DNA of 64,000 bases from a virus (taxonomy: Duplodnaviria; Caudoviricetes), in IMG/VR virus record IMGVR_UViG_3300034106_004043; one strand, written 5' to 3'. The translations under genes and the position numbers were made by a program. The notes below the pieces were generated by a model that was given only the letters and a program-made list of their open reading frames with translations, did no database searches and was not told where the DNA came from. Within the stretch, counting starts at the first letter, position 1, and each line of letters opens with the position of its first letter. Of this stretch, positions 8,377 through 28,892 are shown piece by piece.

Positions 8377-8383
8377 GTTTAAG

Positions 8384-8458: not shown

Positions 8459-8468
8459 ATTATTTTTG

Positions 8469-8540
8469 CGGTGATGGGGAATTTCGAAATCCCGACCCTC
8501 TGATTAACAGTCAGATGCTCCACCTCTGAGCTACATCACC
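8469..8540 (-). tRNA. tRNA-Asn(GUU)
   Basis: tctga-CTGTTAA-tcaga; G73. Confidence 0.93.
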
Positions 8541-10066: not shown

Positions 10067-10078
10067 ATTACATAAATA

Positions 10079-10651: not shown

Positions 10652-10818
10652 TTTTTCTTTGAGTATTTTTCCCTGTTGGAAAGTTTCCTGTCAGGGTCGT
10701 ATTTGTATTTGATGTCAACAGAAATCGGGCCGTTCTTGAACTTATCCAAATCATAAGTCCAAACAGCAATGGTCTCGTCCGTTTCGTAGGTTCTTGTAAA
10801 TTTAGTTTTGTCGCTCAT
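10648..10818 (-). CDS. Small hypothetical protein (56 aa), missing from ORF track
   Basis: MSDKTKFTRTYETDETIAVWTYD...; ATGA overlap with next gene; TATATTTG at 10826-10833. Confidence 0.65.
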   Translation of the reverse strand: MSDKTKFTRTYETDETIAVWTYDLDKFKNGPISVDIKYKYDPDRKLSNREKYSKKK

Positions 10819-10859
10819 AATTTTACAAATATACGAATATTTATAATAAAAACAAAATT

Positions 10860-11132
10860 ATGTTTAGAATCACAGAACAAGAAAACAAACAAATACGTAA
10901 AATGTATGGTTTAATATCAGAATCAACAGAATCTGATTGTAATAATAATCAAATAGAGTTTAAAGAGTTTAGAGTGTGGTGTGCAATGGGAAAAAGATGT
11001 ACAAATAGTGGTTATAAAATTAAACCTGTTGTATCAGGACAACCCGATAATATATGTGCCGACAAAGAATTAATTAGAGCATATAGTGATACTAAACTAT
11101 ATGACGAGTTTAAAATTTACATGGGACGTTAA
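10860..11132 (+). CDS. Hypothetical protein (RITEQE motif, four Cys)
   Basis: ORF; TATTTATA at 10838-10845. Confidence 0.65.
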   Translation: MFRITEQENKQIRKMYGLISESTESDCNNNQIEFKEFRVWCAMGKRCTNSGYKIKPVVSGQPDNICADKELIRAYSDTKLYDEFKIYMGR

Positions 11133-11546
11133 TTATTCCTTATTTTCCAAATTAATTAATGGAACAAAATCTTTTGATGGGGTAAATTCTAAGTTATCAA
11201 CAACGACAGGCATATTAATACTAAAGAATTTAAGGAATTCCTCAATGTCATGACCTATTTGAACTGAAAATTCATACCATCCTTTATTAACACGGTCTCT
11301 TCCAATTATCTTTTCTTTATTACCAAACGCACATAAGTAATAATTAACCATACCTTCACCATTAACCAATTTAACCGATACAAAAAGGTGGTCTTTCATT
11401 TCACCAATACTTATTAACTGAGCAACTTTATCTATATGAAATTGATAATAACCCTTTTGAGGTTTTTCACTGAAACTAACACGATGGTCATAACCAAAAG
11501 TTTTACCCTCAAGAAATTTATTTATCCCGTTAAGTTCTTTATTCAT
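11133..11546 (-). CDS. Hypothetical protein
   Basis: ORF track. Confidence 0.7.
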   Translation of the reverse strand: MNKELNGINKFLEGKTFGYDHRVSFSEKPQKGYYQFHIDKVAQLISIGEMKDHLFVSVKLVNGEGMVNYYLCAFGNKEKIIGRDRVNKGWYEFSVQIGHDIEEFLKFFSINMPVVVDNLEFTPSKDFVPLINLENKE

Positions 11547-11977
11547 CGTCTAACACCAGGTTTAGAATTACCTCTCTGTGGTTCATTATTTCTTTTATAA
11601 TGAGTTACATTTGGTTTAGGAGTGTTAATAGTCGGTGAAGGATTGTTGTGTTGTGGTGGAGGTGGTGGTAACGGTAGTGTAGTTTGTTGATAGTTATACG
11701 TTGGATAATAATTGTTGTTTCTATCATAGTAGTTATAGTCAGGATAGTTGTTGTAATAAGTTACAGGTAATACAACTCTATTACCGTAGTAATCCTCACT
11801 TGATACTGGTCTTGCTTTAGGTTCGTGATGTGTCACCCAAAACTCTTCAGTCCTGTTCCAATACATCTCATCATCTTCGGGTCTTGTTCTGTCGTCAGTT
11901 AGATTTTCAAAACTAGTACAAGATGTGAATAGTAATATAAAAAATAATATGTTAAGATTTTTCAATTCCATAGACAC
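11543..11977 (-). CDS. Putative lipoprotein with Tyr/Asn- and Pro-rich tail
   Basis: ILFFILLFTSC lipobox; YYNNYPDYNYY and PPPPPQ tracts. Confidence 0.6.
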   Translation of the reverse strand: MSMELKNLNILFFILLFTSCTSFENLTDDRTRPEDDEMYWNRTEEFWVTHHEPKARPVSSEDYYGNRVVLPVTYYNNYPDYNYYDRNNNYYPTYNYQQTTLPLPPPPPQHNNPSPTINTPKPNVTHYKRNNEPQRGNSKPGVRR

Positions 11978-12995
11978 GTCCTAGATTTCTTTTTAATTTT
12001 TTACCAGCTTTGTTAATTCTTGGTTCATACATTTTAAACAAATCGTAGATACTATTTGTTTTCTCTATGTCCCTTGGTACTGTTTTATTAGTTTGTTTAG
12101 CAATTTGTCTATATTGTTTCATATAGAACTTATGTAAATTACTTAAATGAAAAACAAGAGTGTCCTCACCACTTCTTTGTTTAATAACATCTACCAACCC
12201 ATCAAAGAAGTTGTCAGCATTAAACTTTTCCATTTTATCAGCAATAAACCAATATGGTGATTTTGTAAACTCTTCAGGTGTCATTTTAAATGATTTTGAA
12301 TAAGCTTCTTGTGACATAGCATTCAATTCATATGGTTCTGAATAATAAACTAAATCTAAAAATTCACTATAATATTTGAAAATCTTTTTAGGAACATTCG
12401 GATTAATTCCACCGGCGAATGTTTTAATTAAATCAACTTCACCCTTACCTGTTGACTCCCATCTTTTATAGAACTCATATAGATGTAATAATTCGTGAGT
12501 AATACTATCTCTTAAGTCATCAATCAAATCATCAATATCTTCAGGTTCAAATGTAGGTGTTATTAAAACTTCAACTTCCATTTTACCTATGATAGTTTTA
12601 TTAATTTCTTTCAGTATTTTTTCAGGTATTTCAAGTGATGGAAGTTTCATGTAAGATTCCCCTTCAGATTCTTTTTTAATCTGATACATAGCACCACCTG
12701 TTTTAAACTTAGCATCGCCACCAGGTTTTTTTACATAACCAAATTTAATCTCAATATCCATTCCTTCAACAGGAAACTCAATAAATGAATCAGGGTCTGA
12801 CTTAACAACTTGTTTCATTGTATTGTAGTCTAAATTAATTGACTCCGAATCATTTTTTTTATTGAATGTCATGTCTTCAACAATTGGTGTAACCTCATTA
12901 AGGACAATATTAATAAAAGGAATTGTTGCACGACTAACACCTAAATCTTCATTCAGTAATCTCTTATATTGTTCTTCTGTAATAACAACTTTCAT
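11952..12995 (-). CDS. Hypothetical protein with HExxH zincin-like motif
   Basis: MKVVITEEQ start; ITHELLHLYE...ELNA. Confidence 0.65.
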   Translation of the reverse strand: MKVVITEEQYKRLLNEDLGVSRATIPFINIVLNEVTPIVEDMTFNKKNDSESINLDYNTMKQVVKSDPDSFIEFPVEGMDIEIKFGYVKKPGGDAKFKTGGAMYQIKKESEGESYMKLPSLEIPEKILKEINKTIIGKMEVEVLITPTFEPEDIDDLIDDLRDSITHELLHLYEFYKRWESTGKGEVDLIKTFAGGINPNVPKKIFKYYSEFLDLVYYSEPYELNAMSQEAYSKSFKMTPEEFTKSPYWFIADKMEKFNADNFFDGLVDVIKQRSGEDTLVFHLSNLHKFYMKQYRQIAKQTNKTVPRDIEKTNSIYDLFKMYEPRINKAGKKLKRNLGRVYGIEKS

Positions 12996-13882
12996 TATAA
13001 CAATGTATTAACTAAATTTTTAAATTCTTCTTTATTTTGTTCTATCCAATTTAAAATATCAGGTCTAATCTTACCACCATAAGGTCCAAAAATCTTGGCA
13101 ACTTCTTCATCTCTTTGACTTACCTCCAAATATTCTTTACGTTCTTCATCGGTTACAATTGGTTTAATGATATCAAAAGAATTTCCTTTTTTAATAAAAA
13201 CATCTGACGATACTCTTAACTCATTAGAATTTACTTTTCTTGGTTTTCTTATGTTGTTAGCATCTGAAAACAATTCAACAGCATTTTCTTTTGTTAGATA
13301 ATATGTTGTTAATCTATCACCAGAATCAATTGTTATACACGTAATATCAACAAGTATTTTTCTTAAAATTTCTTTTTTATACTCCGTAATCTCATTGTCA
13401 TTAACCAAAAATAGATTAGTACCTGTTATTTCAGGTCGGTTGTTTAATAAAGCATTTTTAATTGTTGCAATAGCATCTCCACCTAAACTATTTAAAGCAT
13501 TTGTGAAACCTCCTATTGATGGACTTTCAGTAGTATCATTTAAAAATTTCTGTTCAACTTCTCCTTGACTTACTTTATAATCCCAAATCCCACTTTTACT
13601 TTCATTAAGTGTACCATTAAATAAACCAGCCATCAATCCTTCAATAGCATGTCCTCTAATCTCTTTATACTTAACAATACGATTAATATAATCTTCAAAT
13701 CTTAATCGGTTAACAACATTTAAACTATTCAAATCAACATCTTGACCCCAATCATAATTTAACCCGTAAGCTTCTAAAATTTCTTGAATAACAAATGTCG
13801 CCTCCTGTTTAACAATAGGAATAGGATTGTATAGGTAAAATTTATTTTTAACCTCTTCAGTTATAAGTTTTTTCTTTTTCAT
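12995..13882 (-). CDS. Hypothetical protein
   Basis: 295-aa ORF with KKLITEE start. Confidence 0.75.
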   Translation of the reverse strand: MKKKKLITEEVKNKFYLYNPIPIVKQEATFVIQEILEAYGLNYDWGQDVDLNSLNVVNRLRFEDYINRIVKYKEIRGHAIEGLMAGLFNGTLNESKSGIWDYKVSQGEVEQKFLNDTTESPSIGGFTNALNSLGGDAIATIKNALLNNRPEITGTNLFLVNDNEITEYKKEILRKILVDITCITIDSGDRLTTYYLTKENAVELFSDANNIRKPRKVNSNELRVSSDVFIKKGNSFDIIKPIVTDEERKEYLEVSQRDEEVAKIFGPYGGKIRPDILNWIEQNKEEFKNLVNTLL

Positions 13883-14199
13883 TACTTACCAATAACAATA
13901 TCACTATAGTTTAAGGTTTCCATACCTTTCATATCATCAACCACTTCGTCATACATGTAAGCTTTAACCACTGAAACAATTGATTGTTCCGCTTGAGCAA
14001 TCTTAGATTCCATCCAATCATCCAACTGTTCATCATCTTCCATAATCTCCCACATTTGTAATGCTAAGGTACCAAGGGCAAAAAGTTGTTGCTTAGCCAT
14101 ATAATTACCATCTTTATCTTCATTAATAAGTTCAGTATTTTCAGATAAAGCTTTTTTTAATTTTTCAAGTTGTTCTTCTGTGATTATAATTTTAGACAT
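13882..14199 (-). CDS. Hypothetical, possibly virion-associated protein
   Basis: Start MSKIIITEEQ after TATTTATA at 14215-14222; the ORF-track extension crosses a terminator. Confidence 0.7.
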   Translation of the reverse strand: MSKIIITEEQLEKLKKALSENTELINEDKDGNYMAKQQLFALGTLALQMWEIMEDDEQLDDWMESKIAQAEQSIVSVVKAYMYDEVVDDMKGMETLNYSDIVIGK

Positions 14200-14304
14200 A
14201 ACTATAGTTTTATATATAAATACAAATAAAACGAAAAAAGGGAACACTAATGTTCCCTTTTGAGCCCAACCCGGAAGTTGGTCCACCACTTTGTTTAACA
14301 AAGA

Positions 14305-14565
14305 CTATTTAACCTCACCTACTTTAGCCAATACTTGTTCAGAAAATGTAACAAACTCCATTTCAGTTGTGATTAAAGATTCAACTAAAATCTTGTTAGG
14401 AATATGTACTAATGTATCAGTCACGTTGTAGTATCTAAACGCAACTCCGTTATCAATAGCGTCATTCACAAGTTTTAAAAATAATTTTGTCTGTATTGCG
14501 TCAACAAAAGACATTGTTAATACTTTACCGAATTTTTCGTGTTGGATGTTTAATGTTACTTTCAT
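14305..14565 (-). CDS. Hypothetical protein
   Basis: TATATTTG at 14570-14577. Confidence 0.7.
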   Translation of the reverse strand: MKVTLNIQHEKFGKVLTMSFVDAIQTKLFLKLVNDAIDNGVAFRYYNVTDTLVHIPNKILVESLITTEMEFVTFSEQVLAKVGEVK

Positions 14566-14583
14566 AACACAAATATAGATAAA

Positions 14584-15552
14584 CTATTCCTTACTTCCAA
14601 ACTTTTTGAAATAAAAATCAATAGTTTTATCTAACCCTTCATCAAAATTAACTTTAGGTTCCCACCCAATTTGTTCTTTCACCTTGGTTGAATCAATAGA
14701 GTATCTAAAGTCATGTCCTTTTCTATCTTCAACAAATGTAATTAAGTCTTGTGAGTTCTGTTCCCATTGTTTAATATTATCAATCTTATCACAAATCAAT
14801 CTAACCAGTCTTAAATTATTTAGTTCATTACGTCCACCGATACAATAGGTTTCGCCTACCTTACCTTTGTGAAATATCATATCAATCGCATCCACATGGT
14901 CCTGAACATATAACCAGTCCCTCACATTCTGTCCGTTACCATAAACTGGTATTGGTTTCCCATTAAGGATACTTTTAATGATTGTTGGAATTAATTTTTC
15001 TTGATGTTGGTTTGGTCCAAAGTTATTTGAACAATTTGATATCACAACAGGTAATCCATAAGTGTGGTAGTAAGCTCTAACAAAGTGGTCGGATGATGCC
15101 TTTGATGCTGAGTAAGGACTTCTTGGGTCATAAGCAGTCTTCTCATCAAAAGAACCCACCGCACCTAAATGTCCAAAAACCTCATCAGTTGATATGTGAT
15201 AGAATAATTTAATACCATACTTAATTGAAGCGTCCAACAGATTCAACGTTCCAATAATATTTGTTTGAACAAACTCCATCGGATTTAATATTGAGTTATC
15301 AACATGTGATTCAGCCGCGAAGTGTATTACCGAGTCAAACTTGTAATTTTCAAATAACTTAAATAATCTTTCTCGTTCAGTAATACTAAATTTGATTATT
15401 CTAGAGCTTCTAACATCATCAATGTTATCTTCATCCGCTGCATATGTCCCACTATCAAGGATGACTAAATTATAGTCAGGATATTTCTTTTTAAAGGTAT
15501 TATAAAAATTAGAACCAATAAAACCTAATCCACCAGTTATTAATACATTCAT
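14584..15552 (-). CDS. rfbB: dTDP-glucose 4,6-dehydratase
   Basis: TGGLGFIGS, HFAAESHVDNSI, STDEV, SPYSASKA, NCSNNFGP, QNVRDWLYV. Confidence 0.95.
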   Translation of the reverse strand: MNVLITGGLGFIGSNFYNTFKKKYPDYNLVILDSGTYAADEDNIDDVRSSRIIKFSITERERLFKLFENYKFDSVIHFAAESHVDNSILNPMEFVQTNIIGTLNLLDASIKYGIKLFYHISTDEVFGHLGAVGSFDEKTAYDPRSPYSASKASSDHFVRAYYHTYGLPVVISNCSNNFGPNQHQEKLIPTIIKSILNGKPIPVYGNGQNVRDWLYVQDHVDAIDMIFHKGKVGETYCIGGRNELNNLRLVRLICDKIDNIKQWEQNSQDLITFVEDRKGHDFRYSIDSTKVKEQIGWEPKVNFDEGLDKTIDFYFKKFGSKE

Positions 15553-15812
15553 TTCTCTATTTCTATTTTAAATTCAGTTTTGTTCTTACTGAAGTTTTCT
15601 TTAATGATAGAGTTCCAACTCAATTCTGTTATGAATTTTTTGAACTCTTCGTCTTTGATTTTCTTAATATAAGAAAGTAATTCCTGTTCGGTGCAATCTG
15701 GATTAACATCCATAAATTGTTTAATAATCGGAAATTTGTCCAAGTCAATTTCCTCAAATTCTCTAACACCTTCGTATTGGTGTTTTTCAACCACACCCAT
15801 TTTAATTTTCAT
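15549..15812 (-). CDS. Hypothetical protein
   Basis: ORF coupled to rfbB. Confidence 0.65.
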   Translation of the reverse strand: MKIKMGVVEKHQYEGVREFEEIDLDKFPIIKQFMDVNPDCTEQELLSYIKKIKDEEFKKFITELSWNSIIKENFSKNKTEFKIEIEK

Positions 15813-15857
15813 ATCCGATATAAAAATTATAATCCCCCATGTTTCAGGGGGATTTTA

Positions 15858-16910
15858 TTATTTAATAATTCTTGTTGTGTAAAACTTACCACTATCGTCA
15901 GTAAGAGTAATAACATAAGTTCCATTACTTAATGTTTCAGAATCAAACTGAATGTTGTTAGTAAAATATTTTTCTTGGTGAACACATCTTCCGTCGATAG
16001 ACATAACTCTTAACGTTCCACTATTTGATGGTGTGTTAATATTAACAATACCTAACACAGGGTTTGGCCAAACTTTAACGTTATTAGTCATTGTTTCTTC
16101 AACCCCAATTATAAATTCAGGAACAACGTTTAAGGTATAATCATTTAAAATTCCACCCGGTGTCCAAACTCCATTACTATCAATTGAAAAGTTTATTGAA
16201 GTATAAACCTGACAACCATTAATGGAAATTGCGTATAAGTTAATCGGGAGCATTTGTGAAGTAAACGTTGAGGTAGGGAATGTAATGGTTGGGTATTGTT
16301 CGTTTGAACTCGTCCCATTTCCTCCATTTCCAAAAAACCATTCCCATTCTACAGTATTTGAACCTTGGTAAACCACGTAAATAGTGTTTGGTTCAGATAC
16401 AAGTGAATCAGGAACAAAGTACAGAGTATCAATTGTCGGCATTGCCTCAATTAAACCATCACAGTTGTTATCAATACCGTCATAACATAGTTCAGGTGCC
16501 CCTGGATAGATATATGGGTCAAATGGATTACAGTCAATGTTATCCATGAACCCATCAAAATCTGAGTCTTGGTTTTGAAGTACTATCGTAAATGTCTGAA
16601 CACCTTGTCCTGACCCAAGATATATTGTTTCATTTATACAAGTCTCACCTAAACATGGTGAAGTATAAATTGCACAGATACTAACATTTAGACTATCAAT
16701 TGCTGGTACAACTGCAACATAACTTCCTGTAGGTTGTTGTGTTAAAGTAATACTACCTTGAATACCACCTCCATAATAGTTTCCGAACAATGTGTATGGA
16801 CATCCTCCGAGGTTAATTATATCAACGTTAAAAGACGTTAATACTTGTGATGATGCACTCATTCCAATGAATGCGAAAAGGGTTAAAAGAAATAATTTAA
16901 TTTTTTTCAT
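15858..16910 (-). CDS. Secreted protein with MopE-like metal-binding motif, PKD-like segment and T9SS type A C-terminal domain
   Basis: Signal peptide ending ASS-Q; PGAPELCYDGIDNNCDG; WEWFFGNG; VWPNP...SIDGR...LSNGTYVI...RIIK. Confidence 0.85.
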   Translation of the reverse strand: MKKIKLFLLTLFAFIGMSASSQVLTSFNVDIINLGGCPYTLFGNYYGGGIQGSITLTQQPTGSYVAVVPAIDSLNVSICAIYTSPCLGETCINETIYLGSGQGVQTFTIVLQNQDSDFDGFMDNIDCNPFDPYIYPGAPELCYDGIDNNCDGLIEAMPTIDTLYFVPDSLVSEPNTIYVVYQGSNTVEWEWFFGNGGNGTSSNEQYPTITFPTSTFTSQMLPINLYAISINGCQVYTSINFSIDSNGVWTPGGILNDYTLNVVPEFIIGVEETMTNNVKVWPNPVLGIVNINTPSNSGTLRVMSIDGRCVHQEKYFTNNIQFDSETLSNGTYVITLTDDSGKFYTTRIIK

Positions 16911-17002
16911 AGTTTGTTTTTTTATGTTTAGGTAATAATAGAATAATTGAATTACATAATCAACACATTAATCAAAAACCCCCTTTTTCAAGGGGGCTTA
17001 GA

Positions 17003-17848
17003 TTATTTAAGTAGGTTGTAATACTCGTTGAAGTGTTTTATTCTGTCAGTGAGCCCTATAACCCCGCCATTAACTCGTTTTGTAACTGCCGTGACAGTTG
17101 CAACATCAGAACCCTTATCACAGATTGACCAAAGTTTGTTTGAATCAAAGAAGAACGCCGCAGAGGCTAAAGGATATTTGGTAGCAACTAAATCAGGATT
17201 AGACACAGTATCTTCACCAATGAACTTAGCGAAGTTTGTATAGTTTTGTTTACCAGTCAACTGGATATATCCTCTTCCACGGAATTTAAAACCTTCACCT
17301 GTTGACTCATCACCATTACCCATTCTACTTCCATAAACACGTGAAGCAATCTTTTCAGGTTGACGAGCATATGACTCGTTTAAGTTACCAGGGAAATACT
17401 TACCAAAGATTTTCTTAAGTCCGTCAGCAGAATAGTTAAGGTTCTCAGAAACAGCTTTAAACCCACCTGACTCGTGTCCACACTGAGCCAAGAAATGAGC
17501 TAATCTTAATGGGTTAGTGATATTGAATTTTTTAGCAGTTTCAGGGATTTGAGCAATCACTGCGTCAGGAATATGTCCTTTTAGATTTTGTAATTTGAAC
17601 TCAGAACTTGTTGGAATAACAACATCTTCTTTAACCACTTGTGCTGGTTGAACAGGTTGAGTTGTCGCTCCGAACATTTTAGACCAAGTTCCTGGCCCAA
17701 CGATTCCGTCAGCGGTTATTCCGTTAGCCGCTTGCCATTCTTTAACTTTTTTCTCTGTGTTAGGACCGAATGAACCATCGGCAGTTAATCCTAATTTTGC
17801 TTGGAGTTGTTTAACGTCTTCTCCTTTAGACCCAACTTTTAGTAACAT
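17003..17848 (-). CDS. Endolysin: peptidoglycan-binding domain plus glycoside hydrolase family 19
   Basis: LKVGSKGEDVKQLQ...DGIVGPGTW; LAHFLAQCGHESGGF; FRGRGYIQLTGKQNY; TKRVNGG. Confidence 0.9.
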   Translation of the reverse strand: MLLKVGSKGEDVKQLQAKLGLTADGSFGPNTEKKVKEWQAANGITADGIVGPGTWSKMFGATTQPVQPAQVVKEDVVIPTSSEFKLQNLKGHIPDAVIAQIPETAKKFNITNPLRLAHFLAQCGHESGGFKAVSENLNYSADGLKKIFGKYFPGNLNESYARQPEKIASRVYGSRMGNGDESTGEGFKFRGRGYIQLTGKQNYTNFAKFIGEDTVSNPDLVATKYPLASAAFFFDSNKLWSICDKGSDVATVTAVTKRVNGGVIGLTDRIKHFNEYYNLLK

Positions 17849-17888
17849 AATTTATAATTTTATTATAAATATGTTTAAAGTCAGGAAA

Positions 17889-18074
17889 TTAAACGGTTAT
17901 AATCCAAGTCAAGAGTGAAGCAAATATAAAAAAGAATAAAACCCCAATCCACAGAACACCAGAATTAAAATTTTCTTTCTGTTTATTTTTGTGATAATAT
18001 TTTCTAACTTCTTCACCTAACTCGTAATTGTTTGGGTATTTGTTAACTAATTCTTTAATCTCTTTAGGTATCAT
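17889..18074 (-). CDS. Small membrane protein
   Basis: C-terminal hydrophobic helix. Confidence 0.6.
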   Translation of the reverse strand: MIPKEIKELVNKYPNNYELGEEVRKYYHKNKQKENFNSGVLWIGVLFFFIFASLLTWIITV

Positions 18075-18076
18075 GA

Positions 18077-18301
18077 TTACTTTTTTGTATAAATATAAAA
18101 GTGTTCACCAATATCTACAGTGTATCTTTCCATAAACTTACCCTGACAAGCTTCTTTAAGTTTTGGTGTTAAAGCAAAATGTTCATCTTCATCCAAAGTA
18201 GGTTGAAGTCTAATCTCATACTCCATCTTATATGGTAGTTCCTTTTGTGTTACCACCGCCCATGATGGTAATACCTCTTTAAGATTTTCTAATATTGTCA
18301 T
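18077..18301 (-). CDS. Hypothetical protein
   Basis: TATTTATA at 18316-18323. Confidence 0.65.
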   Translation of the reverse strand: MTILENLKEVLPSWAVVTQKELPYKMEYEIRLQPTLDEDEHFALTPKLKEACQGKFMERYTVDIGEHFYIYTKK

Positions 18302-18322
18302 AGTTTATAAGTATCTATAAAT

Positions 18323-19343
18323 AAAAAAACCCGTCAATTGACAGGTCAGATTAGAAAAGCCTGAGATTACAGCTTATGTTAAGAAACTTTTGAAGGATTA
18401 TTGTTTCCCTTCGTATCCACCACCTTTTGGGTAGTATTTCTTAGTGACGGTATTTTAGGTGTACCACTCCTTGAGGTTTGAATTACTCTATCAGTACTTA
18501 ACTCTTTCCGAGGTTGCCACCCCAGTTCGTCCTTGCGGGACTAAAGGTTTTTCTTAACAATACACATTGACTTGGGGTCTCTGTATGCAATGAACGGCTC
18601 ATTACTATGTAGTCACCTTTCACTCAAACCTGATGGACACTTTTCCTTTGTTATTTTGTAATAATTTTAGGGTTGTGTTGTAGATGTGTCAGAGTAGTGG
18701 TCCAACATAAGCTCTGTCTCCTTTTGAGCGACAGAATACTAAACTACTCCGTGAAGTGTCCCCACCTCCATATTTCAAGATTACTTCATAAAGAGACCTT
18801 GGTAGGTCTTCCTTAGGGATAGTAGCGACACCACTCGTTCTCCATCTTACCTTTCGGTTTTAAGTCCTCTATCATATTGGGACCCGCAATAGTGTAACTG
18901 GATGGTCACATTTCTTACAGAGTTCCTATGGGTTATTCTTATCGTTCTTCCGAACTCAACTTGAGAATCTACTTTCCCAAGTCACCCAACCATTTTCCCT
19001 ACGAAGTTATCCTCGGTACTTACGGTGTGGTGATATCCCACTTGTGTACTTGAGTTCAATTCCCCTTACGGGGTTTCAAACCGCAGTCTCCTCAACACAG
19101 GGGAGACCACTTTATCCTACTTTCGTAGTTTATTTAAGGACCATACACGGCCCATTATCGTTTATCAGTTACACTCAAGCTGCGGACTTTCTGCCATTTA
19201 CTCGGTGGATAATATCACCGACACTTTGTGTTTCCTGAACGGATAATCTTTTTGTTTCAAAGAACGCTTTTTCAAAAAGAGAAGAAGGAGGAATCTTTAC
19301 AACCTACCGAAGTAGGAATCTTTACAACCTCTTCATCTCAAAT
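18323..19343 (-). ncRNA. Large (~1 kb) structured non-coding RNA
   Basis: No credible ORF; GC-richer; minus-strand GAAA, GUAA and UUCG tetraloop hairpins; promoter upstream and terminator at 18323-18346. Confidence 0.75.
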
Positions 19344-19349
19344 CTTTTA

Positions 19350-19482
19350 CAAACTTACGACTTTTTTTTCTTTCTGTCAAGTAGTTTGTGAACTTTTTTT
19401 TTGATTTAACTACCGAGTATCTTTCATCCCCTATGAGTGTTAAATCTTTTACAAACTTACGGCGAATATTCCGTAGTGTCAA
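19350..19482 (-). promoter_or_regulatory. Tandem Bacteroidota-type promoters for the large ncRNA
   Basis: TTGAC...TAAGTTTG twice (-7 boxes at 19350-19357 and 19452-19459). Confidence 0.7.
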
Positions 19483-19500
19483 ATAAATATATCAAAAAAA

Positions 19501-19911
19501 TCAAAAGTTTAACACATCAGTTAAAACTTCCTTAATACCTGATGACATATTAAGTCCTTTAATTTCTTCTAAAGTCATATAAGCGCACTCTGTGTGTTCA
19601 AAACCATCCGCTGCTCCATCTAAATCCGGAATGATTTCAGTATCGGTTTTAAAAATAAAGACATGTAAAATTGTTTTTACCTGTCCTAACTTATTATAAC
19701 GATTAATTCTAGATAAAGGTTTAATGACACCATCAACACTAACACCCATCTCTTCATAGAACTCTCTATACGCAGCATCCTTTGGGTCTTCACCTTCTTC
19801 TATACCACCCATAGGTATTGCCCATTTTGATGGTTCATTAATTTCGACAGCTCTCTTACAAACTAAACATCTGTTATTTACTTTTACAATTATTCCTGCA
19901 CTTTGTTTCAT
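19501..19911 (-). CDS. NUDIX hydrolase
   Basis: GGIEEGEDPKDAAYREFYEEMG. Confidence 0.9.
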   Translation of the reverse strand: MKQSAGIIVKVNNRCLVCKRAVEINEPSKWAIPMGGIEEGEDPKDAAYREFYEEMGVSVDGVIKPLSRINRYNKLGQVKTILHVFIFKTDTEIIPDLDGAADGFEHTECAYMTLEEIKGLNMSSGIKEVLTDVLNF

Positions 19912-20326
19912 AATACTATTTATATATAACTATGTTTGTAATAATAAATAAAGAAATTTTTAAAGTCAAAGTTTGTAAAACCAAATCTGAAACTCAAAGA
20001 GGGATGATAGGTCGTGAATTTATCGGATTTGATGGTATGCTATTTTTAATGGGTAAAGGTGAACACAGTTTTTGGATGATGAACTGTATTATTCCTTTGG
20101 ATATTATCTTTATAGATGAAAACTATAAGATAACAAAAATACACCACAACTGTGAACCATGTGAAGATGAACTTTGTCAAAGTTACGAAGGTTCTGGAAC
20201 CTATGTTTTAGAAATAGAAGGTGGTCGTTGTCAAGATGAAAATATTGAAGAAGGTGATATCTGTAAGTTTTTAATTAAAGTTTAAACTTTCTTACTTTTA
20301 CAATTATTCCCGCACTTTGTTTCATA
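19878..20326. repeat. 35-bp direct repeat pair flanking the DUF192 gene
   Basis: 19878-19912 vs 20292-20326, one mismatch; duplicates the NUDIX start. Confidence 0.85.
19932..20285 (+). CDS. DUF192 family protein
   Basis: QRGM...GMLF...FWMMNCIIPLDIIFID...YVLEIEGG. Confidence 0.85.
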   Translation: MFVIINKEIFKVKVCKTKSETQRGMIGREFIGFDGMLFLMGKGEHSFWMMNCIIPLDIIFIDENYKITKIHHNCEPCEDELCQSYEGSGTYVLEIEGGRCQDENIEEGDICKFLIKV

Positions 20327-20361
20327 TATACTTATATTTATAAATAGGTGAAAACTAACTA

Positions 20362-20853
20362 ATGAAAAGACTTTCTCAAATTTCTATTTTAAAAAAATTG
20401 GTTCTTGAGTCGATTAACCAACCTGAAATTATTTTTGAGGGCGATTTGAGTGTAAGTCCAGGTTTAAGAATATGTCTTTACGATAAGGACAAAAATATGA
20501 TTGGTAGTACTAATGTACTTGACTATGATTCATCAATTGGGTTGGACCCTGATATTAATAGATTTAATAATAAAAAGACGGAATATTGTAGAGAGATGTG
20601 TGACGATAATTTTTTTAATGGTAAAAACTCCGTTTATTTACATAGTTTATTTGTGGATGAAAATCATAGAAACAGAGGATATGCCGACATTCTAAAAAAT
20701 GAATGTCATGAAATTGCCAAATCTAGGGGTTTTGATTACGCAACTTCAATAGTCAGTTTAAAAAATGAGGCATCACAAGAGTTAAACAAAAAACATGGGT
20801 ACAAAGTACACCAAACAAATGGGTTTAAGGATTTTTTCTATAAAAAATTGTGA
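20362..20853 (+). CDS. GNAT-family N-acetyltransferase
   Basis: LHSLFVDENHRNRGYA...NEASQELNKKHGY. Confidence 0.8.
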   Translation: MKRLSQISILKKLVLESINQPEIIFEGDLSVSPGLRICLYDKDKNMIGSTNVLDYDSSIGLDPDINRFNNKKTEYCREMCDDNFFNGKNSVYLHSLFVDENHRNRGYADILKNECHEIAKSRGFDYATSIVSLKNEASQELNKKHGYKVHQTNGFKDFFYKKL

Positions 20854-20858
20854 ATAAC

Positions 20859-22265
20859 TCAATTCTTTGAAGACTCAATTTTTTCTTGTAGGACACTAAC
20901 AAATCTATTCTGTAACATCTTTAAGAATTTAATATAAGGTGAATCTTCTTTTTCAGACTCATACTTGTACTTACCTTGTGGTGGTCTCTTACTTCTTCCA
21001 ATATAGTTTAATCCTGATATATTTGTAATACACTTGTGTCCACCTGAATTGGCTTGGATAACTTCCCATACAGGAACGGTAACACCATCTAAAACACTCC
21101 ATTCTTCTTCAGTCAGTTCAGTTGATTTCTTTTCCATCAAAGATTTAATATCCATAAGTGTTTTAACACCATCTTTCTCATCCAAGTATTTGTCTCCGTA
21201 TATTGCAGCAAAATCCTTAAAGGTAAATCCAACTGATTCTTCTTTCGCAGCAGTTTCAGAAACCCACTTGATTGTTGATAATGGGACTTGTTTTTCTTTT
21301 AATTGTGATTCCCAATGTCCCAATACTTCTTGAGCAATCTCTCCCAAGTTAACACCTTTAAGTTCTCTTTCTTTTTTAAAAGGGTTACATGATGCCTGTA
21401 ATAAACCAAGTGGCCAAGCAATAACAAGGAAGTCAGCATCAGGGTTGTTTCTAAATGGGGTATATCTATCATATGAACCAGGTCTCATCATACTTCCACC
21501 ACCATACTGAACGATGATATTATCTTTAACCTGAACATTCTTATGTCCTTTCATTGTCTGAACGTAATCTTCTTTGTTTTTCTCTAATGAAGATATATCA
21601 GCATATCTGTTTGTCTTCATTAATTCCTTAATCTTATTGAAGATTGAAAGAAGTGAAGGTTTACAATCTAATACTAATGTCTCTAAAAATCCTGGTTTAC
21701 TTTTGAAAGCCAACAATAATTTGTTGGTAACCAAACCTAATAACATTCTATTTTCTTTAGCACTCTTTTCTTTTGATGTACCATAAACATAATTCATCAC
21801 CATTTCAGGTGTAATGTTTTTGGAAGCGTAATCAGCACTATCAACCATAGATATTGTCGCAACATCTTCTGGTGTGAAAATTTCAGAAGCCGGGACAATC
21901 TGTGAAAGAGTTTCAACATTTGAACGAGCCCCTCTGAACTGAGTTGACTTAGTTTCGTCAGCTCCGGCTTGTCTGTCGTGGTGGTCGGTATGAACCACGA
22001 ACATTGGTTTTCCGTGAGCAAAGTCAACAAGAACTGGCATAATTTCACCTTCAGCATCCGCCTTCTTAACCGCAAATTCTTTATCTCCGTATTGGATTAC
22101 TTCAACATCAACAACTTTAATTCCATTGTCTTCCAAATACTTTTTCATTGCTAATGCAGTTGCAACACCATCTAAATCTTGGTGAAAGTATATCTTCGCT
22201 TTGCTGTATCTATTAGAAAGTTCTTTTATGTTTCTAATACCACCTTCAGAAATTATCTTTTTCAT
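20859..22265 (-). CDS. DHH-like phosphoesterase
   Basis: FHQDLDG, LVDFAH, HTDHH, SGGH. Confidence 0.7.
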   Translation of the reverse strand: MKKIISEGGIRNIKELSNRYSKAKIYFHQDLDGVATALAMKKYLEDNGIKVVDVEVIQYGDKEFAVKKADAEGEIMPVLVDFAHGKPMFVVHTDHHDRQAGADETKSTQFRGARSNVETLSQIVPASEIFTPEDVATISMVDSADYASKNITPEMVMNYVYGTSKEKSAKENRMLLGLVTNKLLLAFKSKPGFLETLVLDCKPSLLSIFNKIKELMKTNRYADISSLEKNKEDYVQTMKGHKNVQVKDNIIVQYGGGSMMRPGSYDRYTPFRNNPDADFLVIAWPLGLLQASCNPFKKERELKGVNLGEIAQEVLGHWESQLKEKQVPLSTIKWVSETAAKEESVGFTFKDFAAIYGDKYLDEKDGVKTLMDIKSLMEKKSTELTEEEWSVLDGVTVPVWEVIQANSGGHKCITNISGLNYIGRSKRPPQGKYKYESEKEDSPYIKFLKMLQNRFVSVLQEKIESSKN

Positions 22266-22339
22266 TAATAATAAATATTATAACAAAAAAAAAGTTCATC
22301 ATTACGATGAACCTTTTAAAGTAAAAAAGTAATATACCT

Positions 22340-22711
22340 CTATTTTAAAGTTAACAAGTATTTCAACTGGTTAATTTCCGCTAACATTTCGTCTCTAATG
22401 TTTAATAAATCTGAGTCCATCTTTGGGTCGTAGCTTTCAGACAATCCCACCAAGTATTCACATACTAAATTAATAAACTCAGTTAACTCAAGTTCTTCAA
22501 TATCTCTACCCGCTAATGTATAACCGCCTGTAAAACTAGGTCTTCCGTGTTTACCCATACAAACTTCAACAAACTTATCAATCAAATCATCAAGTGAATC
22601 ATAAATACGCCCATAAGCCTCATGTCTTGAGAATGATTTTGTTTGCCAGTGTAGTATTCTAAACTGAGTTTGTGTTTCTAGTAAAAATTTAACAACTTCC
22701 GAATTTTTCAT
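22340..22711 (-). CDS. Ferritin/Dps-like four-helix protein (DUF5856-like)
   Basis: LHWQTKSFSRHEAYG...DKFVE...LLNIRDEML...KYLLTL. Confidence 0.8.
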   Translation of the reverse strand: MKNSEVVKFLLETQTQFRILHWQTKSFSRHEAYGRIYDSLDDLIDKFVEVCMGKHGRPSFTGGYTLAGRDIEELELTEFINLVCEYLVGLSESYDPKMDSDLLNIRDEMLAEINQLKYLLTLK

Positions 22712-22756
22712 AATAACATTTAATTATAAATATACAAATAAATAAAAAAACGGAGT

Positions 22757-23614
22757 TTATTGGACTCCGTTTTCAAATTGTAACTTCTGTTGGTTCTTTT
22801 GGTCAACAAAACTTTGTATTCGTTGTTTAGCAATTTCACAATAGTTTTCACTCAATTCAATACCAACCCATCTTCTGTCATGAACAACTGCTGCCACACA
22901 ACTGGTTCCTGAACCATTGAAAGGGTCTAAAACAATATCATTTCTATATGATAATATCTTAATTGCCTTTTCGGGAATATCCATCGAGAACGTTGCCTTT
23001 GTTAATGAACGAGTGTCAGCAAAGTATTTCCATTGTCCAAACACCAATTCCATGAACTCTTTCTTATCTTGTTCAGAATAAGCAACTTTGTTCTTTCCCT
23101 CTTCAGTTAGATAAGGTTCACCTTTCCATTGTGGTTCACCTTTAATTTTCTTAATATGAACTTTCTTATAAGCAAGAATAACACACTCTTTTGGGTTATA
23201 AATGTAAGGTGCCGATGGACTCATCCAAGAACCCCAAGCAGTTGTCTTACTTCTATGTGGCGAGTCTTCTTCAAGGTCAACAATACCGTAGAACTTAAAC
23301 CCAACTTTTTTCATCACCTGATATATCTCAGAGGCAAAGAATACTCTACCACCACGAGCTTGTACATTTACCTCATATGGTATGTTAATAGCCATTCTTC
23401 CATCGTCTTTAAGTAAACGATAAGCCTCCGTTAACCATTTTTCAGACCAATCCCAATATTCATCCATAACAATCTCATCATTATGTGTGTCGTATTGGAT
23501 ACCCACATTATATGGTGGTGACGTTACAACTAAATCAACCCAACCTTCAGGCATCTCTTTCATTACATCAATGGTGTCACCATTGATTACCTTATTAATA
23601 TAATTCTCAATCAT
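22757..23614 (-). CDS. Site-specific DNA methyltransferase (N4/N6, beta class)
   Basis: TSPPY; VLDPFNGSGT; GIELSENY. Confidence 0.9.
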   Translation of the reverse strand: MIENYINKVINGDTIDVMKEMPEGWVDLVVTSPPYNVGIQYDTHNDEIVMDEYWDWSEKWLTEAYRLLKDDGRMAINIPYEVNVQARGGRVFFASEIYQVMKKVGFKFYGIVDLEEDSPHRSKTTAWGSWMSPSAPYIYNPKECVILAYKKVHIKKIKGEPQWKGEPYLTEEGKNKVAYSEQDKKEFMELVFGQWKYFADTRSLTKATFSMDIPEKAIKILSYRNDIVLDPFNGSGTSCVAAVVHDRRWVGIELSENYCEIAKQRIQSFVDQKNQQKLQFENGVQ

Positions 23615-23834
23615 TCTGTAATTTTTCTATCTTTTTTTCAATATACCATATAGCTTTCTTCAGGTCCTGAACCACATTGTCTTTCTTACCAGCACGTGAT
23701 AGGTATTTGACCGCATTACCCAAATAAAAATCTTTATCTAAACCCCAAGCATCAATGACTTTGATAGCTTCATATGGATTATCTTCACCACCATAGTGTG
23801 ATGGGTGATTAACCATTTCTTTTTGTTCTGACAT
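23607..23834 (-). CDS. DUF3310-like protein
   Basis: VNHPSHY...FYLGNAVKYLSRAGKK...DLKKAIWY. Confidence 0.85.
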   Translation of the reverse strand: MSEQKEMVNHPSHYGGEDNPYEAIKVIDAWGLDKDFYLGNAVKYLSRAGKKDNVVQDLKKAIWYIEKKIEKLQND

Positions 23835-24009
23835 AATATTCTTTTCCATATTTACTTTCTTCAAGTATACCCTCACTTACAAGTTTTTCAATTCGTTTTC
23901 TTGTTTCGTCGATTCCAACTCGTAGGATATAATCACAAATGTAATTGATATGAACTGGTTTTTCAAGTTTTCTTAACAGAACTTCATACGGGTCTATATT
24001 GTTTCTCAT
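23809..24009 (-). CDS. Small winged-helix-like protein
   Basis: IEKLVSEGILEES...YY; start trimmed to MRNNID. Confidence 0.55.
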   Translation of the reverse strand: MRNNIDPYEVLLRKLEKPVHINYICDYILRVGIDETRKRIEKLVSEGILEESKYGKEYYVRTKRNG

Positions 24010-24145
24010 ACTCTTTAAATTTTTTGGCAACGTCGTTATTTGTGAAAATGATTGAATCGGCTTTGAGATAATGATTAATAATAGTTAAATCTTTTTCTAA
24101 ACTTTTGATTTGTTCTTCTCCTATTATTTTTTTGTTGAATCCCAT
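23984..24145 (-). CDS. Small hypothetical protein (53 aa), missing from ORF track
   Basis: MGFNKKIIGEEQ...; TATATTTG at 24150-24157. Confidence 0.6.
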   Translation of the reverse strand: MGFNKKIIGEEQIKSLEKDLTIINHYLKADSIIFTNNDVAKKFKEYEKQYRPV

Positions 24146-24157
24146 ATAACAAATATA

Positions 24158-24919
24158 TTAATCTTTTTTTAGATTTACAATTGTTTTTTTCTGAACTATG
24201 TAACTTAATACCTTTCTTTTAAAGATTGGTAGGAGTGTATTTTCAAATGGTAGGTCGTTGGAAGACATTAATTCAAAGATGGGTAAACTTATATCTTGTG
24301 TTAATTCATTTAATATTGTTCTAATTACCTTTTTACTTTCCCCATCAAATATCAACTGAACCGCAAATTTACTGTCGTGTTTAACCGTATCAATACCACC
24401 AGTTGTATACTTCCAAATCCTTTTGTTGTTCCCGTTAAGTGTGAAGAAGTAACCTCTTTCTAAATCCTGTTTCTTATTTTCGTTGGTGTGTTTGATTGAA
24501 ACCGAGTCGTATGTTAATGTCCAAAGAGCTTTGATGACATTGAAATATTCAAAAAACTTTGGTCCGGCATATTTTAATACCTTATTTAATTCTTCCAACT
24601 CATCATCATTTAATTTTGGGATGGGTGTGAATTTAAGTTCATTGATTAGTATTTCATCATCAATAACTTCAAACTTCTTATTAACAACGATGTATTTGAA
24701 TTCCGAAGACATCACTTGTAGATTAGCCAAGTGTAATGACATTTCACTAAATAATGGATATAACTCAAACTTCTCAATCTTATCGTCACAGAACTTTAAA
24801 AAGTCCATCAACATATAATATTTGTGTTCGTAGTCAATTGGTTCTGTTAATAACCAGTCGGTTGTTAATCTGAAATGATTATTTTTTTTCGTTCTTCTTT
24901 TTCTTGATTTGGTTTCCAT
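24158..24919 (-). CDS. Hypothetical protein
   Basis: 253-aa ORF. Confidence 0.75.
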   Translation of the reverse strand: METKSRKRRTKKNNHFRLTTDWLLTEPIDYEHKYYMLMDFLKFCDDKIEKFELYPLFSEMSLHLANLQVMSSEFKYIVVNKKFEVIDDEILINELKFTPIPKLNDDELEELNKVLKYAGPKFFEYFNVIKALWTLTYDSVSIKHTNENKKQDLERGYFFTLNGNNKRIWKYTTGGIDTVKHDSKFAVQLIFDGESKKVIRTILNELTQDISLPIFELMSSNDLPFENTLLPIFKRKVLSYIVQKKTIVNLKKD

Positions 24920-24920
24920 T

Positions 24921-26219
24921 TTACCCTTCTATTTGTAAAATGTAATATGTTTCATCATTAAATTCAATAGTATCGTAATCACCATCGTAAGAGTTCAGTG
25001 TGTGACCAATACCGTCAGTTTGAATTAACCCTTCTTTAAATCCTTTTATATCTATAAAGTTTTCAATATTCAAACCATATTCTTCAATTACGTTCGCAGG
25101 GTCATCAACCAAATCATTAATTAAATCTTCAACCTTTTCCTCAATTAAATTTTCAGGGACAGTTTTATCACTATCTCTTAACTCATCAAGTTCTTCATTT
25201 AATTCATCTTTTTTTTCTTGGTCTATTTCAGAATCTTCTAAAAACAATTCAATTTCATCAATCCTTTCTTGAACTGCCGGGTCGGAATATTCAAAATCTT
25301 CCTCGTCAAAAAAGTCTTCAAGGTTTTCTCTAACATTATTTTCTTCATCGTCTCTAAAAGTTTCCTTAAGTTCTTCAATATCAATATAATCTTCAACAAA
25401 ACTAGAATTAAAACCTTTTATTCCGATATCATCAATCAATTCATCAATTCTTTCATATGCCGACATGTGGGTTCTATAATTATCACCAACCGCCCATCTT
25501 TCTTTTGATTCTTCTAATTCGTCAGTTAACAAATAAAAAGTTCTCATACTATAATATTTGTAATCATAAACCAAATTATATAAGTCAATTCTTTTTTCAA
25601 GTTCTTCAATTTCTTCTTCAACCGCTTCTAAATCCATCAGATTTTCATTATCTTCTGTTTCTTTCTCAATTTCCTCCATTCTTTCTTTTGCAGTATAAAG
25701 TTCCTGTAACCTTGCATCATGATTAGGTTCTTTAGCCTCATAAAGACCAAAAGATGAAGTCAGATACTCAAATAAAACATTTGCCAAAATCGCAATCTCA
25801 CTAGTCGCAGTTTCTAAATTCCATTCGTCCTCTTGTCGTAAATCGTTTTGTTTGGCTAATTCAATCTGTCTTTGTTTTTTGATTTGAATTTTTTCATACG
25901 GTGTTCCATATGTTGAAATATTATTGTATATAAGACCCTCAAGAGAGTTAATTTGAGTGTATGATAAATCTAAACCACCATTAACTGTGATATTTGTAAT
26001 GTTATTAGCATCCGTATTTCTCAAACTTAAGTCACCATCAATAACAATTCGTTTACCTCTGAATTGTTTCATATTTTGAACCAATTTACCGTTATAGTTA
26101 GTAAACTTTAATAAGTCAATATATTGCTCAGGTGTTATAACAACACTCTCTTGTCCTTCTTCCTCAACCAACATCTGAACAACCTTTTGTATTTGTGATA
26201 TATCTATATTAACTCTCAT
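24921..26219 (-). CDS. Acidic hypothetical protein with a short LRR-like segment
   Basis: IDGDLSLRNT...VNGGLDLSYTQINSLEG; Asp/Glu-rich C-terminal half. Confidence 0.7.
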   Translation of the reverse strand: MRVNIDISQIQKVVQMLVEEEGQESVVITPEQYIDLLKFTNYNGKLVQNMKQFRGKRIVIDGDLSLRNTDANNITNITVNGGLDLSYTQINSLEGLIYNNISTYGTPYEKIQIKKQRQIELAKQNDLRQEDEWNLETATSEIAILANVLFEYLTSSFGLYEAKEPNHDARLQELYTAKERMEEIEKETEDNENLMDLEAVEEEIEELEKRIDLYNLVYDYKYYSMRTFYLLTDELEESKERWAVGDNYRTHMSAYERIDELIDDIGIKGFNSSFVEDYIDIEELKETFRDDEENNVRENLEDFFDEEDFEYSDPAVQERIDEIELFLEDSEIDQEKKDELNEELDELRDSDKTVPENLIEEKVEDLINDLVDDPANVIEEYGLNIENFIDIKGFKEGLIQTDGIGHTLNSYDGDYDTIEFNDETYYILQIEG

Positions 26220-26309
26220 GATAAAAATTATATTAATAAATATTAAAATAACTATATTATTTACTATTAAATCACATGTGGTAAATATTTATAATAAAAT
26301 ACCAACAAT

Positions 26310-26435
26310 ATGGGATGTGGATGTAAAAAACAAAGTGCGTCACCTGAACAGGTGAAAAAGTTAAGAACTGAGAGTATCAGAACAGCAATTCAAAGTACTA
26401 TTGATAAGTACTACAACAAAAACAAGAAAAAGTAA
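26310..26435 (+). CDS. 41-aa MGCGCKK micropeptide
   Basis: Manual translation; TATTTATA at 26286-26293. Confidence 0.6.
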   Translation: MGCGCKKQSASPEQVKKLRTESIRTAIQSTIDKYYNKNKKK

Positions 26436-26459
26436 TAAACCTCTAATAAATTAAAAACA

Positions 26460-26501
26460 ATGAAGAACAACAACGGTGGTGGTTGCGGATGTGGAAAATA
26501 A
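26460..26501 (+). CDS. 13-aa micropeptide MKNNNGGGCGCGK
   Basis: Manual translation; repeats the GCGC motif; terminator follows. Confidence 0.4.
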   Translation: MKNNNGGGCGCGK

Positions 26502-26526
26502 TCTTTCCCGCAACATAAGAAAACTA

Positions 26527-26550
26527 AAAGGGGAATTTTTCCCCTTTTTT
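26527..26550 (+). terminator. Intrinsic terminator
   Basis: aaaagggga/tcccctttt stem plus T-tract. Confidence 0.7.
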
Positions 26551-26563
26551 TATATTTATCATT

Positions 26564-27676
26564 ATGGAATTTAAAATTTTCAAAAACTTAAACGAAGAAG
26601 AGGAAAAACCCGTACTAACAGCTTTCCAAAATAAGTTAGTAAAACTTATTACTCTATTCCAAAACGGAGATGTTACTGAAGAGGATATTGAAAACACCAT
26701 AGGTGGTTTTGATAAATTTTTTGAGTTAATAATTAAAAATAATTTAACACATTACATTGACCCTTTTAATAATGACTGGTCGGATTATCAAAATAAAATA
26801 ATTTATCAGTTAATACAAAAAGACCCAAATTACATCTATAAGATGATGGAAATGGAATTTTCAGATATAACTGAAATTGATGGGAAATATTATGTTGATT
26901 TAGAAGATTCTGGTGAACTGGCACAATTCTTTAGTAGTGGTAGAAACGATATTAGTGAAGATAGAATTGCCGAAATATTAAATGGGGATTATGATGGTTA
27001 TTTATATGATGACGTAACAGGTGATGAGTTCAAAGATATTTATGAAGAACTAGAACCAAAATACCAAGAAGAAATTAGAGGTTATATCAAAGAAGATTTA
27101 CTTAAAATTGGTAATTTATCTATCGAACATCTAACTCCTGAATTAATAGAAGATTTAGCAATAGAACAAGGTGATGAGTCGAATTTAAAATTAAATGAAG
27201 AGATAATCACTAAACTTTTACAAGATAATGATTGTGTTGAATACTTTATAATGAACTTAGGATTAGATATAAGAAGTGAATTATATTCATTATACTCAAA
27301 TTGTTATGGGTCGGTTTATGCTAACGAATTGTATGACTCACTTATAGGACAATTAGTCGGTGAGGTTATTGATAGTAAAAAATCAGAAGAGTATAAATAC
27401 AAAAAACACGACTACAATAAAAGTACATCAACAGAAAGATGGGGTGTAAGATATGAAGTTACAAAAACTGCTCATAATAATATTAAACTTTGGTTTGAAA
27501 GTAACGTAAATAACCCATATGAAAATTTAAATTATTACGGAGGTTACATCAACCTACTTAAAAGTTTATTTGAAAATGGTGATTTAAATTGGTTGAGTTC
27601 TGGAAGAGTTCCTGACTACCCCGATTTAGGTGACGTTAAAAAATGTCTTAATATTGAATTTAATAGTTATTTCTAA
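26564..27676 (+). CDS. Hypothetical acidic protein
   Basis: 370-aa ORF; TATTTATC upstream. Confidence 0.75.
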   Translation: MEFKIFKNLNEEEEKPVLTAFQNKLVKLITLFQNGDVTEEDIENTIGGFDKFFELIIKNNLTHYIDPFNNDWSDYQNKIIYQLIQKDPNYIYKMMEMEFSDITEIDGKYYVDLEDSGELAQFFSSGRNDISEDRIAEILNGDYDGYLYDDVTGDEFKDIYEELEPKYQEEIRGYIKEDLLKIGNLSIEHLTPELIEDLAIEQGDESNLKLNEEIITKLLQDNDCVEYFIMNLGLDIRSELYSLYSNCYGSVYANELYDSLIGQLVGEVIDSKKSEEYKYKKHDYNKSTSTERWGVRYEVTKTAHNNIKLWFESNVNNPYENLNYYGGYINLLKSLFENGDLNWLSSGRVPDYPDLGDVKKCLNIEFNSYF

Positions 27677-27726
27677 TAACACAAAAAATTATTTACACTT
27701 TAACCTTTAAAATTTTAGTTCTAAAA

Positions 27727-28883: not shown

Positions 28884-28892
28884 GGAACAAAA

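Follow-up and report, generated by a model that had tools for sequence, protein, structure and literature searches.

A stand-alone GOLLD RNA gene with tandem promoters in a large, tRNA-rich freshwater phage

Lake phages carry the type of RNA that gave the GOLLD family its name. GOLLD RNAs have been linked to phages and to tRNAs, and they follow a two-domain layout in which the conserved 3′ domain is joined by a variable linker and by a 5′ domain that is less conserved (PMC12286853). Cryo-electron microscopy (cryo-EM) of the env-38 GOLLD revealed a 14-mer D7 nanocage made of RNA only, with a variable linker (Kretsch et al. 2025, PMC12286853), and the published ideas on function are the encapsulation or binding of tRNAs or ribosomes (PMC12286853). 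Here we analysed a region of about 1 kb in a 64,000-nucleotide (nt) stretch of viral DNA, IMG/VR record IMGVR_UViG_3300034106_004043, which we refer to as the window. We conclude with high confidence that a GOLLD RNA (RF02032) has its own, stand-alone gene in this region and that the gene belongs to a large freshwater phage rich in tRNAs; the host of this phage is probably one of the Bacteroidota. The RNA, its control elements and the neighbouring genes given with coordinates are all on the minus strand.

An Rfam scan of the whole window matched RF02032 to 18751-18358 (-) at 322 bits, where the cut-off is 150 (E 2e-91). The match spans model positions 1-416 of 416 and is thus not truncated, and it is the sole non-tRNA Rfam match in the 64 kb. 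When 18250-19560 was scanned up to E = 10, only noise was returned besides GOLLD and none of the other families reached E = 1. ROOL, OLE, group I/II introns, RNase P and tmRNA gave no match in this interval even at E = 10, and ARAGORN found no tmRNA in the window. OLE, which is likewise a large ornate noncoding RNA, is found in extremophilic Firmicutes, has partner proteins and forms a dimer. ROOL resembles the present RNA in its phage niche near tRNA islands, its similar size class and its RNA-only cage, an 8-mer in ROOL (PMC12286853), but is unrelated in sequence and fold. The earlier note on this DNA, made by eye from the letters alone, had left open whether the region encodes GOLLD, ROOL or a new class. 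The Rfam match, together with a homologous and covarying 5′ domain, decides for GOLLD, which removes the novelty and confirms the RNA.

Since RF02032 models only the universally conserved 3′ domain (here the 3′ 394 nt, 18358-18751), the upstream ~500 nt were tested separately. For this 5′ part, 19266-18752 (515 nt), a homologous counterpart exists in each of the 92 other GOLLDs that we extracted from IMG/VR and phage records, with 66-98% identity over ~400 nt. This 5′ domain starts at a conserved box, CGTTCTTTGAAA (19266), so that the conserved RNA is 19266-18358 (-), 909 nt. Its dimensions agree with those of GOLLD RNAs, which have ~400-500 nt in the 5′ domain and more than 800 nt in total. 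A 30-nt motif of the 5′ half is present in 67 IMG/VR contigs, and a 3′-domain motif in more than 113 when looser patterns are used, a strict first 3′-domain pattern having matched nothing in IMG/VR. Where both motifs occur they are 700-770 nt apart, and the spacing here, 719 nt, is the one that 34 other GOLLD loci show most often. Several IMG/VR contigs are 96-98.5% identical across the whole RNA, and all GOLLD relatives found by the IMG/VR motif searches are viral contigs. Among deposited phages, megablast of 10000-30000 gave no match and blastn of the RNA matched only LR745206 (635 kb) and LR756502 (642 kb). These are huge uncultured phages whose GOLLDs score 287 and 275 bits and align in both domains; they differ from ours by their ~70% identity, by tRNA genes directly flanking the RNA and by lacking the promoter modules described below. 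Nothing contradicts GOLLD membership. The RNA is an ordinary lake-phage member of a known family, and the most conspicuous noncoding island of the window is therefore not one to pursue as a new RNA class.

The RNA fold is under selection. A consensus computed with RNAalifold from 29 non-redundant sequences, each less than 90% identical to the others, contains 195 pairs, of which 145 show compensatory changes, and helices covary in both domains. An 811-nt core folds at z -3.1, with none of 20 shuffles equally stable. The earlier note had proposed a structured noncoding RNA of ~1 kb with tandem promoters and a terminator, and this proposal stands in all its structural points; the fold energy, the Rfam E-value and the compensatory changes go beyond chance. 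It had also described the region as the largest stretch free of open reading frames (ORFs) and as GC-richer than its flanks. At a threshold of at least 80 amino acids (aa), the interval 17849-19500 (1652 nt) is indeed the longest, ahead of the next at 1176 nt; counting two ORFs of 74 and 61 aa as genes shortens the gap to 18302-19500 (1199 nt). The GC fraction is 0.40-0.44 over 18450-19350, compared with 0.26-0.34 in the immediate flanks.

We observe that this RNA occurs in nature far above its neighbouring genes. The phage DNA was detected in at least 14 lake-water metagenomes, and six freshwater or river metatranscriptome runs contain 34-50% of sampled words of the DNA. RNA contigs from four runs of four freshwater studies, placed on 17000-20600, fall only within 18331-19298, where their summed depths reach 10^2 to 10^4. 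The flanks 17000-18330 and 19299-20600, which include the Nudix, endolysin and small-ORF genes, have depths of ~0-10. The 5′ domain is covered up to ~19190, and one run (X15) yielded six pieces identical to the window. Contaminating DNA would cover the flanks equally, so the contigs support an abundant, discrete RNA matching the conserved core.

Upstream of the RNA we find two promoters contained in a 44-nt direct repeat. The distal promoter P1 (19452-19483) consists of TTTG (19483-19480), 20 nt and TAAGTTTG (19459-19452), with a predicted start at ~19446; the proximal promoter P2 (19350-19381), 102 nt downstream of P1, has CTTG, 20 nt and TAAGTTTG (19357-19350), with a predicted start at ~19344. 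Both had been picked out previously as TTGAC promoters; across the window, the pattern TTGAC-N18-TAAGTTTG is matched exactly only twice, at 19482-19452 and at 19380-19350 (-). The promoter pair therefore stands as first described, while its type has to be refined. As ordinary sigma-70 sites, P1 and P2 would each have a perfect TTGACA at 17-nt spacing from TAAGTT, and they would then say nothing about a Bacteroidota host. We consider this improbable. The Bacteroidota housekeeping consensus, -33 TTTG and -7 TAnnTTTG (PMC2483708, PMC7641319), fits better than sigma-70. In relatives the upstream regions hold two or three tandem modules in which TTGACA is lost (TTTGGTAG, TTTGTCTG, TTTGGAAG) but TTG, 18-21 nt and TAnnTTTG are kept, and all seven -7 variants seen, which include TAAGTTTG, TAAATTTG, TAACTTTG and TATATTTG, fit TAnnTTTG. 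The conserved GTTCTTT box is carried by 58 of 59 distinct GOLLD upstream regions; in 50 of them TTG-N18-21-TAnnTTTG ends at most 120 nt upstream of it, typically at a distance of 26-28 nt, and two or three promoter sites lie within 330 nt in 44 of 57 upstream regions.

The motif is also enriched across the window, with 14 sites of the strict TTTG form against 3.7 +/- 2.0 expected (~fourfold), a number that none of 100 shuffles reached. The looser form [C/T]TTG-N18-21-TAnnTTTG has 17 sites upstream of genes and tRNA arrays, often continuing TTTGTAAAA. Examples are 3573-3542, 6787-6756, 8798-8767 (which precedes a tRNA array), 10856-10826, 14601-14570 and 32289-32258; the site at 6787-6756 is closely similar to the GOLLD-upstream promoter module of relatives L005, L018 and L027. 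Downstream of the RNA, a neighbouring gene (15858-16910) encodes a protein that combines a MopE-like metal-binding motif with a C-terminal sorting domain for type IX secretion. Domains of the latter kind are typical of Bacteroidota, and this one speaks further against plain sigma-70 sites. Together, the promoters and this sorting domain point to a phage host that is probably a member of the Bacteroidota. A scan of bacterial genomes with the 5′-domain motif returned only two small contigs of metagenome-assembled genomes, one from Bacteroidetes (2.1 kb) and one from Methylocystis (0.5 kb); the former agrees with a Bacteroidota-type promoter, and as host evidence the two matches are weak.

Between the two promoters lies a segment (19385-19450) that forms a hairpin, GAUUUAAC...GUUAAAUC (-9.2 kcal/mol, z -2.69), followed by an A9 run. 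Relatives retain the hairpin with other letters, GATTTGAGAC...GTCTCGAATC, and every upstream promoter module, in the window and in the matching segments of relatives, is followed by its own small hairpin and A8-9 run. The short hairpin may serve to stabilise a 5′ end, or it may be a small transcript in its own right. Between the P2 start and the conserved box is a window-specific leader insertion of 78 nt (19267-19344), which contains two 22-nt direct repeats (19330-19309 and 19305-19284; D3) and folds at -19.7 kcal/mol, with a z of only -1.6. In relatives that are 96-98.5% identical its place is taken by a 19-nt hairpin, TCGGA-AATG-TCCGA, which covaries in L006, and their order is proximal promoter, small hairpin, conserved box. 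The leader word TTGTAAARATT was considered as a phage-wide motif and rejected: with 26 window sites against 22.6 expected it is not enriched, which indicates a local duplication.

At the other end, the closing terminator of the earlier note is found as a hairpin and T-run at 18347-18328. The full intrinsic terminator (18321-18347) has an 8-bp stem, an AAUU loop and a U-run (z -3.26). We propose that host RNA polymerase would initiate at P2 (-7 box 19357-19350, start ~19344), with P1 as a second promoter upstream, and that transcription would end at the terminator hairpin with its U-run (18347-18321), so that the primary transcript would measure ~1,020 nt. The stable RNA would lack the leader, which varies between relatives.

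The genes around the RNA raise a different possibility, namely that it is mainly a long structured 5′ leader rather than an RNA in its own right, and that it controls the 74-aa ORF, the 61-aa ORF and the endolysin downstream through regulated terminator read-through. The gene order on the minus strand is a 468-aa protein with faint similarity to DHH-family phosphoesterases, then (past GNAT and DUF192 genes on the plus strand) a Nudix hydrolase (19501-19911), GOLLD, the 74-aa ORF (18077-18301), the 61-aa ORF, an endolysin with PG_binding_1 and GH19 domains (17003-17848), the type IX sorting-domain protein and a sugar epimerase. Three observations would suit a regulatory leader: GOLLD is followed on the same strand by the 74-aa ORF and then mostly by the 61-aa ORF and the endolysin, an order that is conserved; the 74-aa ORF begins ~50 nt past the end of the GOLLD model in 26 of the 30 loci carrying it; and GOLLD expression goes up at lysis in the single system studied (PMC12286853). 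However, a strong terminator follows the RNA, and contig depth falls across it from 10^2-10^4 to ~0-4. Moreover, a majority of GOLLD loci are without the 74-aa ORF, the 61-aa ORF and the endolysin, and 21 of 118 have a tRNA within 9-25 nt in place of these genes. We therefore regard a mainly regulatory leader as very unlikely and retain the stand-alone RNA gene.

Neither Pfam nor PHROG gave a match for the 74-aa ORF. Its synteny with Nudix and GOLLD extends over ~30 of 118 GOLLD loci, down to 35-65% protein identity; these loci come from related phages, so the synteny may reflect descent alone. Among loci that differ by 3-15% in Nudix and endolysin, the ORF is 99-100% identical, and it remains beside GOLLD even in loci without the endolysin. 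Its product could be a partner protein, or the ORF could simply be a syntenic gene. Its relatives are found only in the same phage group and thus provide no test of a GOLLD link beyond shared ancestry.

Individual helices show how the fold is maintained. Four tetraloop hairpins singled out in the earlier note are read on the minus strand exactly where it had placed them, but they are not equally parts of the RNA: two belong to the conserved helices of GOLLD and covary, one extends a hairpin tip in a lineage-specific way, and the one with the TTCG loop lies outside the conserved RNA. In CTAC-GAAA-GTAG (19117-19128), all four pairs are present in 28-29 of the 29 sequences, the GAAA loop is near-invariant, and the pair types include UA 16 / CG 13 and AU 24 / GC 2 / CG 2 / UA 1. 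ACC-GAAA-GGT (18849-18858; alignment columns 594-616) also has a conserved GAAA loop, with pair types AU 26 / GC 3, CG 27 / UA 2 and CG 28 / UG 1. CCCC-GTAA-GGGG (19062-19073) is the tip extension of a variable-length hairpin whose base helix covaries (alignment A2, columns 365-394); its counterpart in most relatives has 7 bp and then a GNRA loop, and in others is extended with a UUCG cap. CCTAC-TTCG-GTAGG (19303-19316) sits in the window-specific leader insertion. The 5′ domain also carries a 66-nt hypervariable hairpin insert (19169-19234), closed by TCAG (19238-19235) and CTGA (19168-19165), that differs in length and sequence among relatives 95-97% identical elsewhere. The insert type of the window recurs in the distant GOLLDs L149 and L080, which are ~70% identical overall, and the hairpin looks exchanged between lineages.

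Between the domains, an A-rich variable linker of 51 nt (18639-18689) occupies alignment columns that vary in both length and sequence, and ARAGORN found no tRNA in it. The linker is enclosed by helix a-a′ (18751-18743 with 18698-18690), the outer stem of the first 3′-domain hairpin, and helix b-b′ (18705-18700 with 18638-18633), in which a bulge of the same hairpin pairs just past the linker. Both helices are paired in 28-29 of the 29 sequences with several pair types, and because they cross, the linker lies inside a pseudoknot. A long-range pairing joins AGGUUUGA (18631-18624) to UCAAACCU (18481-18474); this is inverted repeat I2 (18474-18631) and a pseudoknot annotated in Rfam. It is paired in 26-29 of the 29 sequences and covaries heavily (for example UA 13 / AU 13; UA 8 / GC 7 / CG 7). 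Cryo-EM work has reinterpreted a long-range pairing adjacent to the linker, earlier found by covariation, as an inter-subunit bridge (PMC12286853), and the pairing seen here is probably this reassigned contact, mapped by position only. Two adjacent hairpins follow at 18508-18541, the first with a loop CGCAA (18537-18533) containing a self-complementary dinucleotide that is GC in 26 of 29 sequences and CG in 3. Such a GC/CG switch has been described for the inter-subunit kissing loop L21a (PMC12286853), to which the CGCAA hairpin would correspond by its position.

These helices bear on two further readings. A new large ornate class unrelated to GOLLD, ROOL and OLE could draw on the 5′ 515 nt having no Rfam match of its own, as the model covers the 3′ 394 nt only; we give this practically no weight, since the GOLLD match is full-length at twice the cut-off and the 5′ part is homologous to that of every other extracted GOLLD, lies at the canonical distance and covaries. 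Equally negligible is the idea that the stretch encodes small proteins of 41-64 aa on either strand, for which mechanical ORFs exist at 18498-18623, 18673-18816, 18928-19053, 19044-19238 and 19228-19404, but which is at odds with relatives that vary by compensatory helix changes and not in a codon-like way, with indels of arbitrary length tolerated at hairpin tips and in the linker, and with the strong Rfam structure match.

Compared with env-38, the GOLLD RNA described here has the same full-length match to the conserved 3′ domain, the two domains with a variable linker, a size above 800 nt, conserved hairpins capped by GAAA and the long-range pairing, and it too comes from a lake phage genome with a tRNA island; its GC/CG self-complementary loop would be a further shared feature if it is L21a, as its position suggests. 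The differences are in details only: the 78-nt leader insertion, the extended GUAA-capped tip and the 66-nt hypervariable hairpin. Homology with env-38 leads us to expect that 14 copies of the RNA form a protein-free D7 nanocage that encloses the linker, and we consider this likely. Our best guess for its role, offered tentatively and with low confidence, is that the cage might target tRNAs or ribosomes, and so translation, while the phage grows lytically.

Several points weigh against this account of the gene and its product. The RNA evidence consists of assembled contigs. They are uninformative on the strand, the exact ends and the relative level of the RNA, and related GOLLD variants matching at 90% or more contribute some of the depth. 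Among the four runs no RNA contig covers the leader (19344-19267) or the promoter region, so the RNA may be processed at its 5′ side or begin at another position. The starts of P1 and P2 are predictions, and a generic sigma-70 scan listed neither promoter and gave a site count no higher than in shuffles. For the present sequence, cage assembly is deduced from homology, and the loops were assigned to env-38 contacts by position only. The added value of the locus is modest: a well-defined natural GOLLD gene with its own Bacteroidota-type tandem promoters and terminator and a likely host phylum, together with dozens of close and distant relatives and a clear presence in lake metatranscriptomes. 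The lineage is a reasonable place to seek GOLLD function.

With respect to tRNAs, further details that set the locus apart from the known GOLLD are its 3′ intrinsic terminator and the lack of any tRNA within the linker or right beside the RNA. The window contains 15 tRNA genes at 3017-8540 (ARAGORN), the nearest tRNA array being ~10 kb from GOLLD. In the 21 tRNA-adjacent loci mentioned above (e.g. L005, L073, L111, L117), the tRNA gene starts 9-25 nt past the GOLLD 3′ hairpin, at the place where the terminator is found here, and with a tRNA directly after GOLLD the RNA 3′ end would be set by RNase P. We also observed that the GOLLD 3′-terminal hairpin recurs in the window at 5521-5505 (-), where the 11-nt loop UGUAAUCUCAG is unchanged and the stem is compensated (CAC/GUG for AGC/GCU). 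This copy lies ~10 nt before a tRNA-Ser and closes a spacer RNA of ~260 nt (5497-5758, -), for which Rfam gave no family and no GOLLD-like match at E up to 1 on 5300-7000. Four IMG/VR loci, L154, L160, L161 and L157, have a conserved version of this spacer, again between tRNAs (L154 and L160 being the same here). In these tRNA-array contigs, which carry the hairpin-plus-tRNA arrangement in three distinct sequences, Rfam found no GOLLD.

The shared promoter class, the recurring hairpin before tRNA-Ser, the 21 of 118 tRNA-adjacent loci and the hairpin-plus-tRNA module without GOLLD are the grounds for supposing that GOLLD is tied mechanistically to the phage's own tRNA system in the present lineage, a tie that we hold to be doubtful at best. 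The hairpin beside a tRNA could act as a common module for processing or docking, and if so, it would link the cage to pre-tRNA handling. In the related IMG/VR contig L161, the tRNA array also contains a freshwater-1 RNA (RF02979, 73.6 bits) at 1964-2025.

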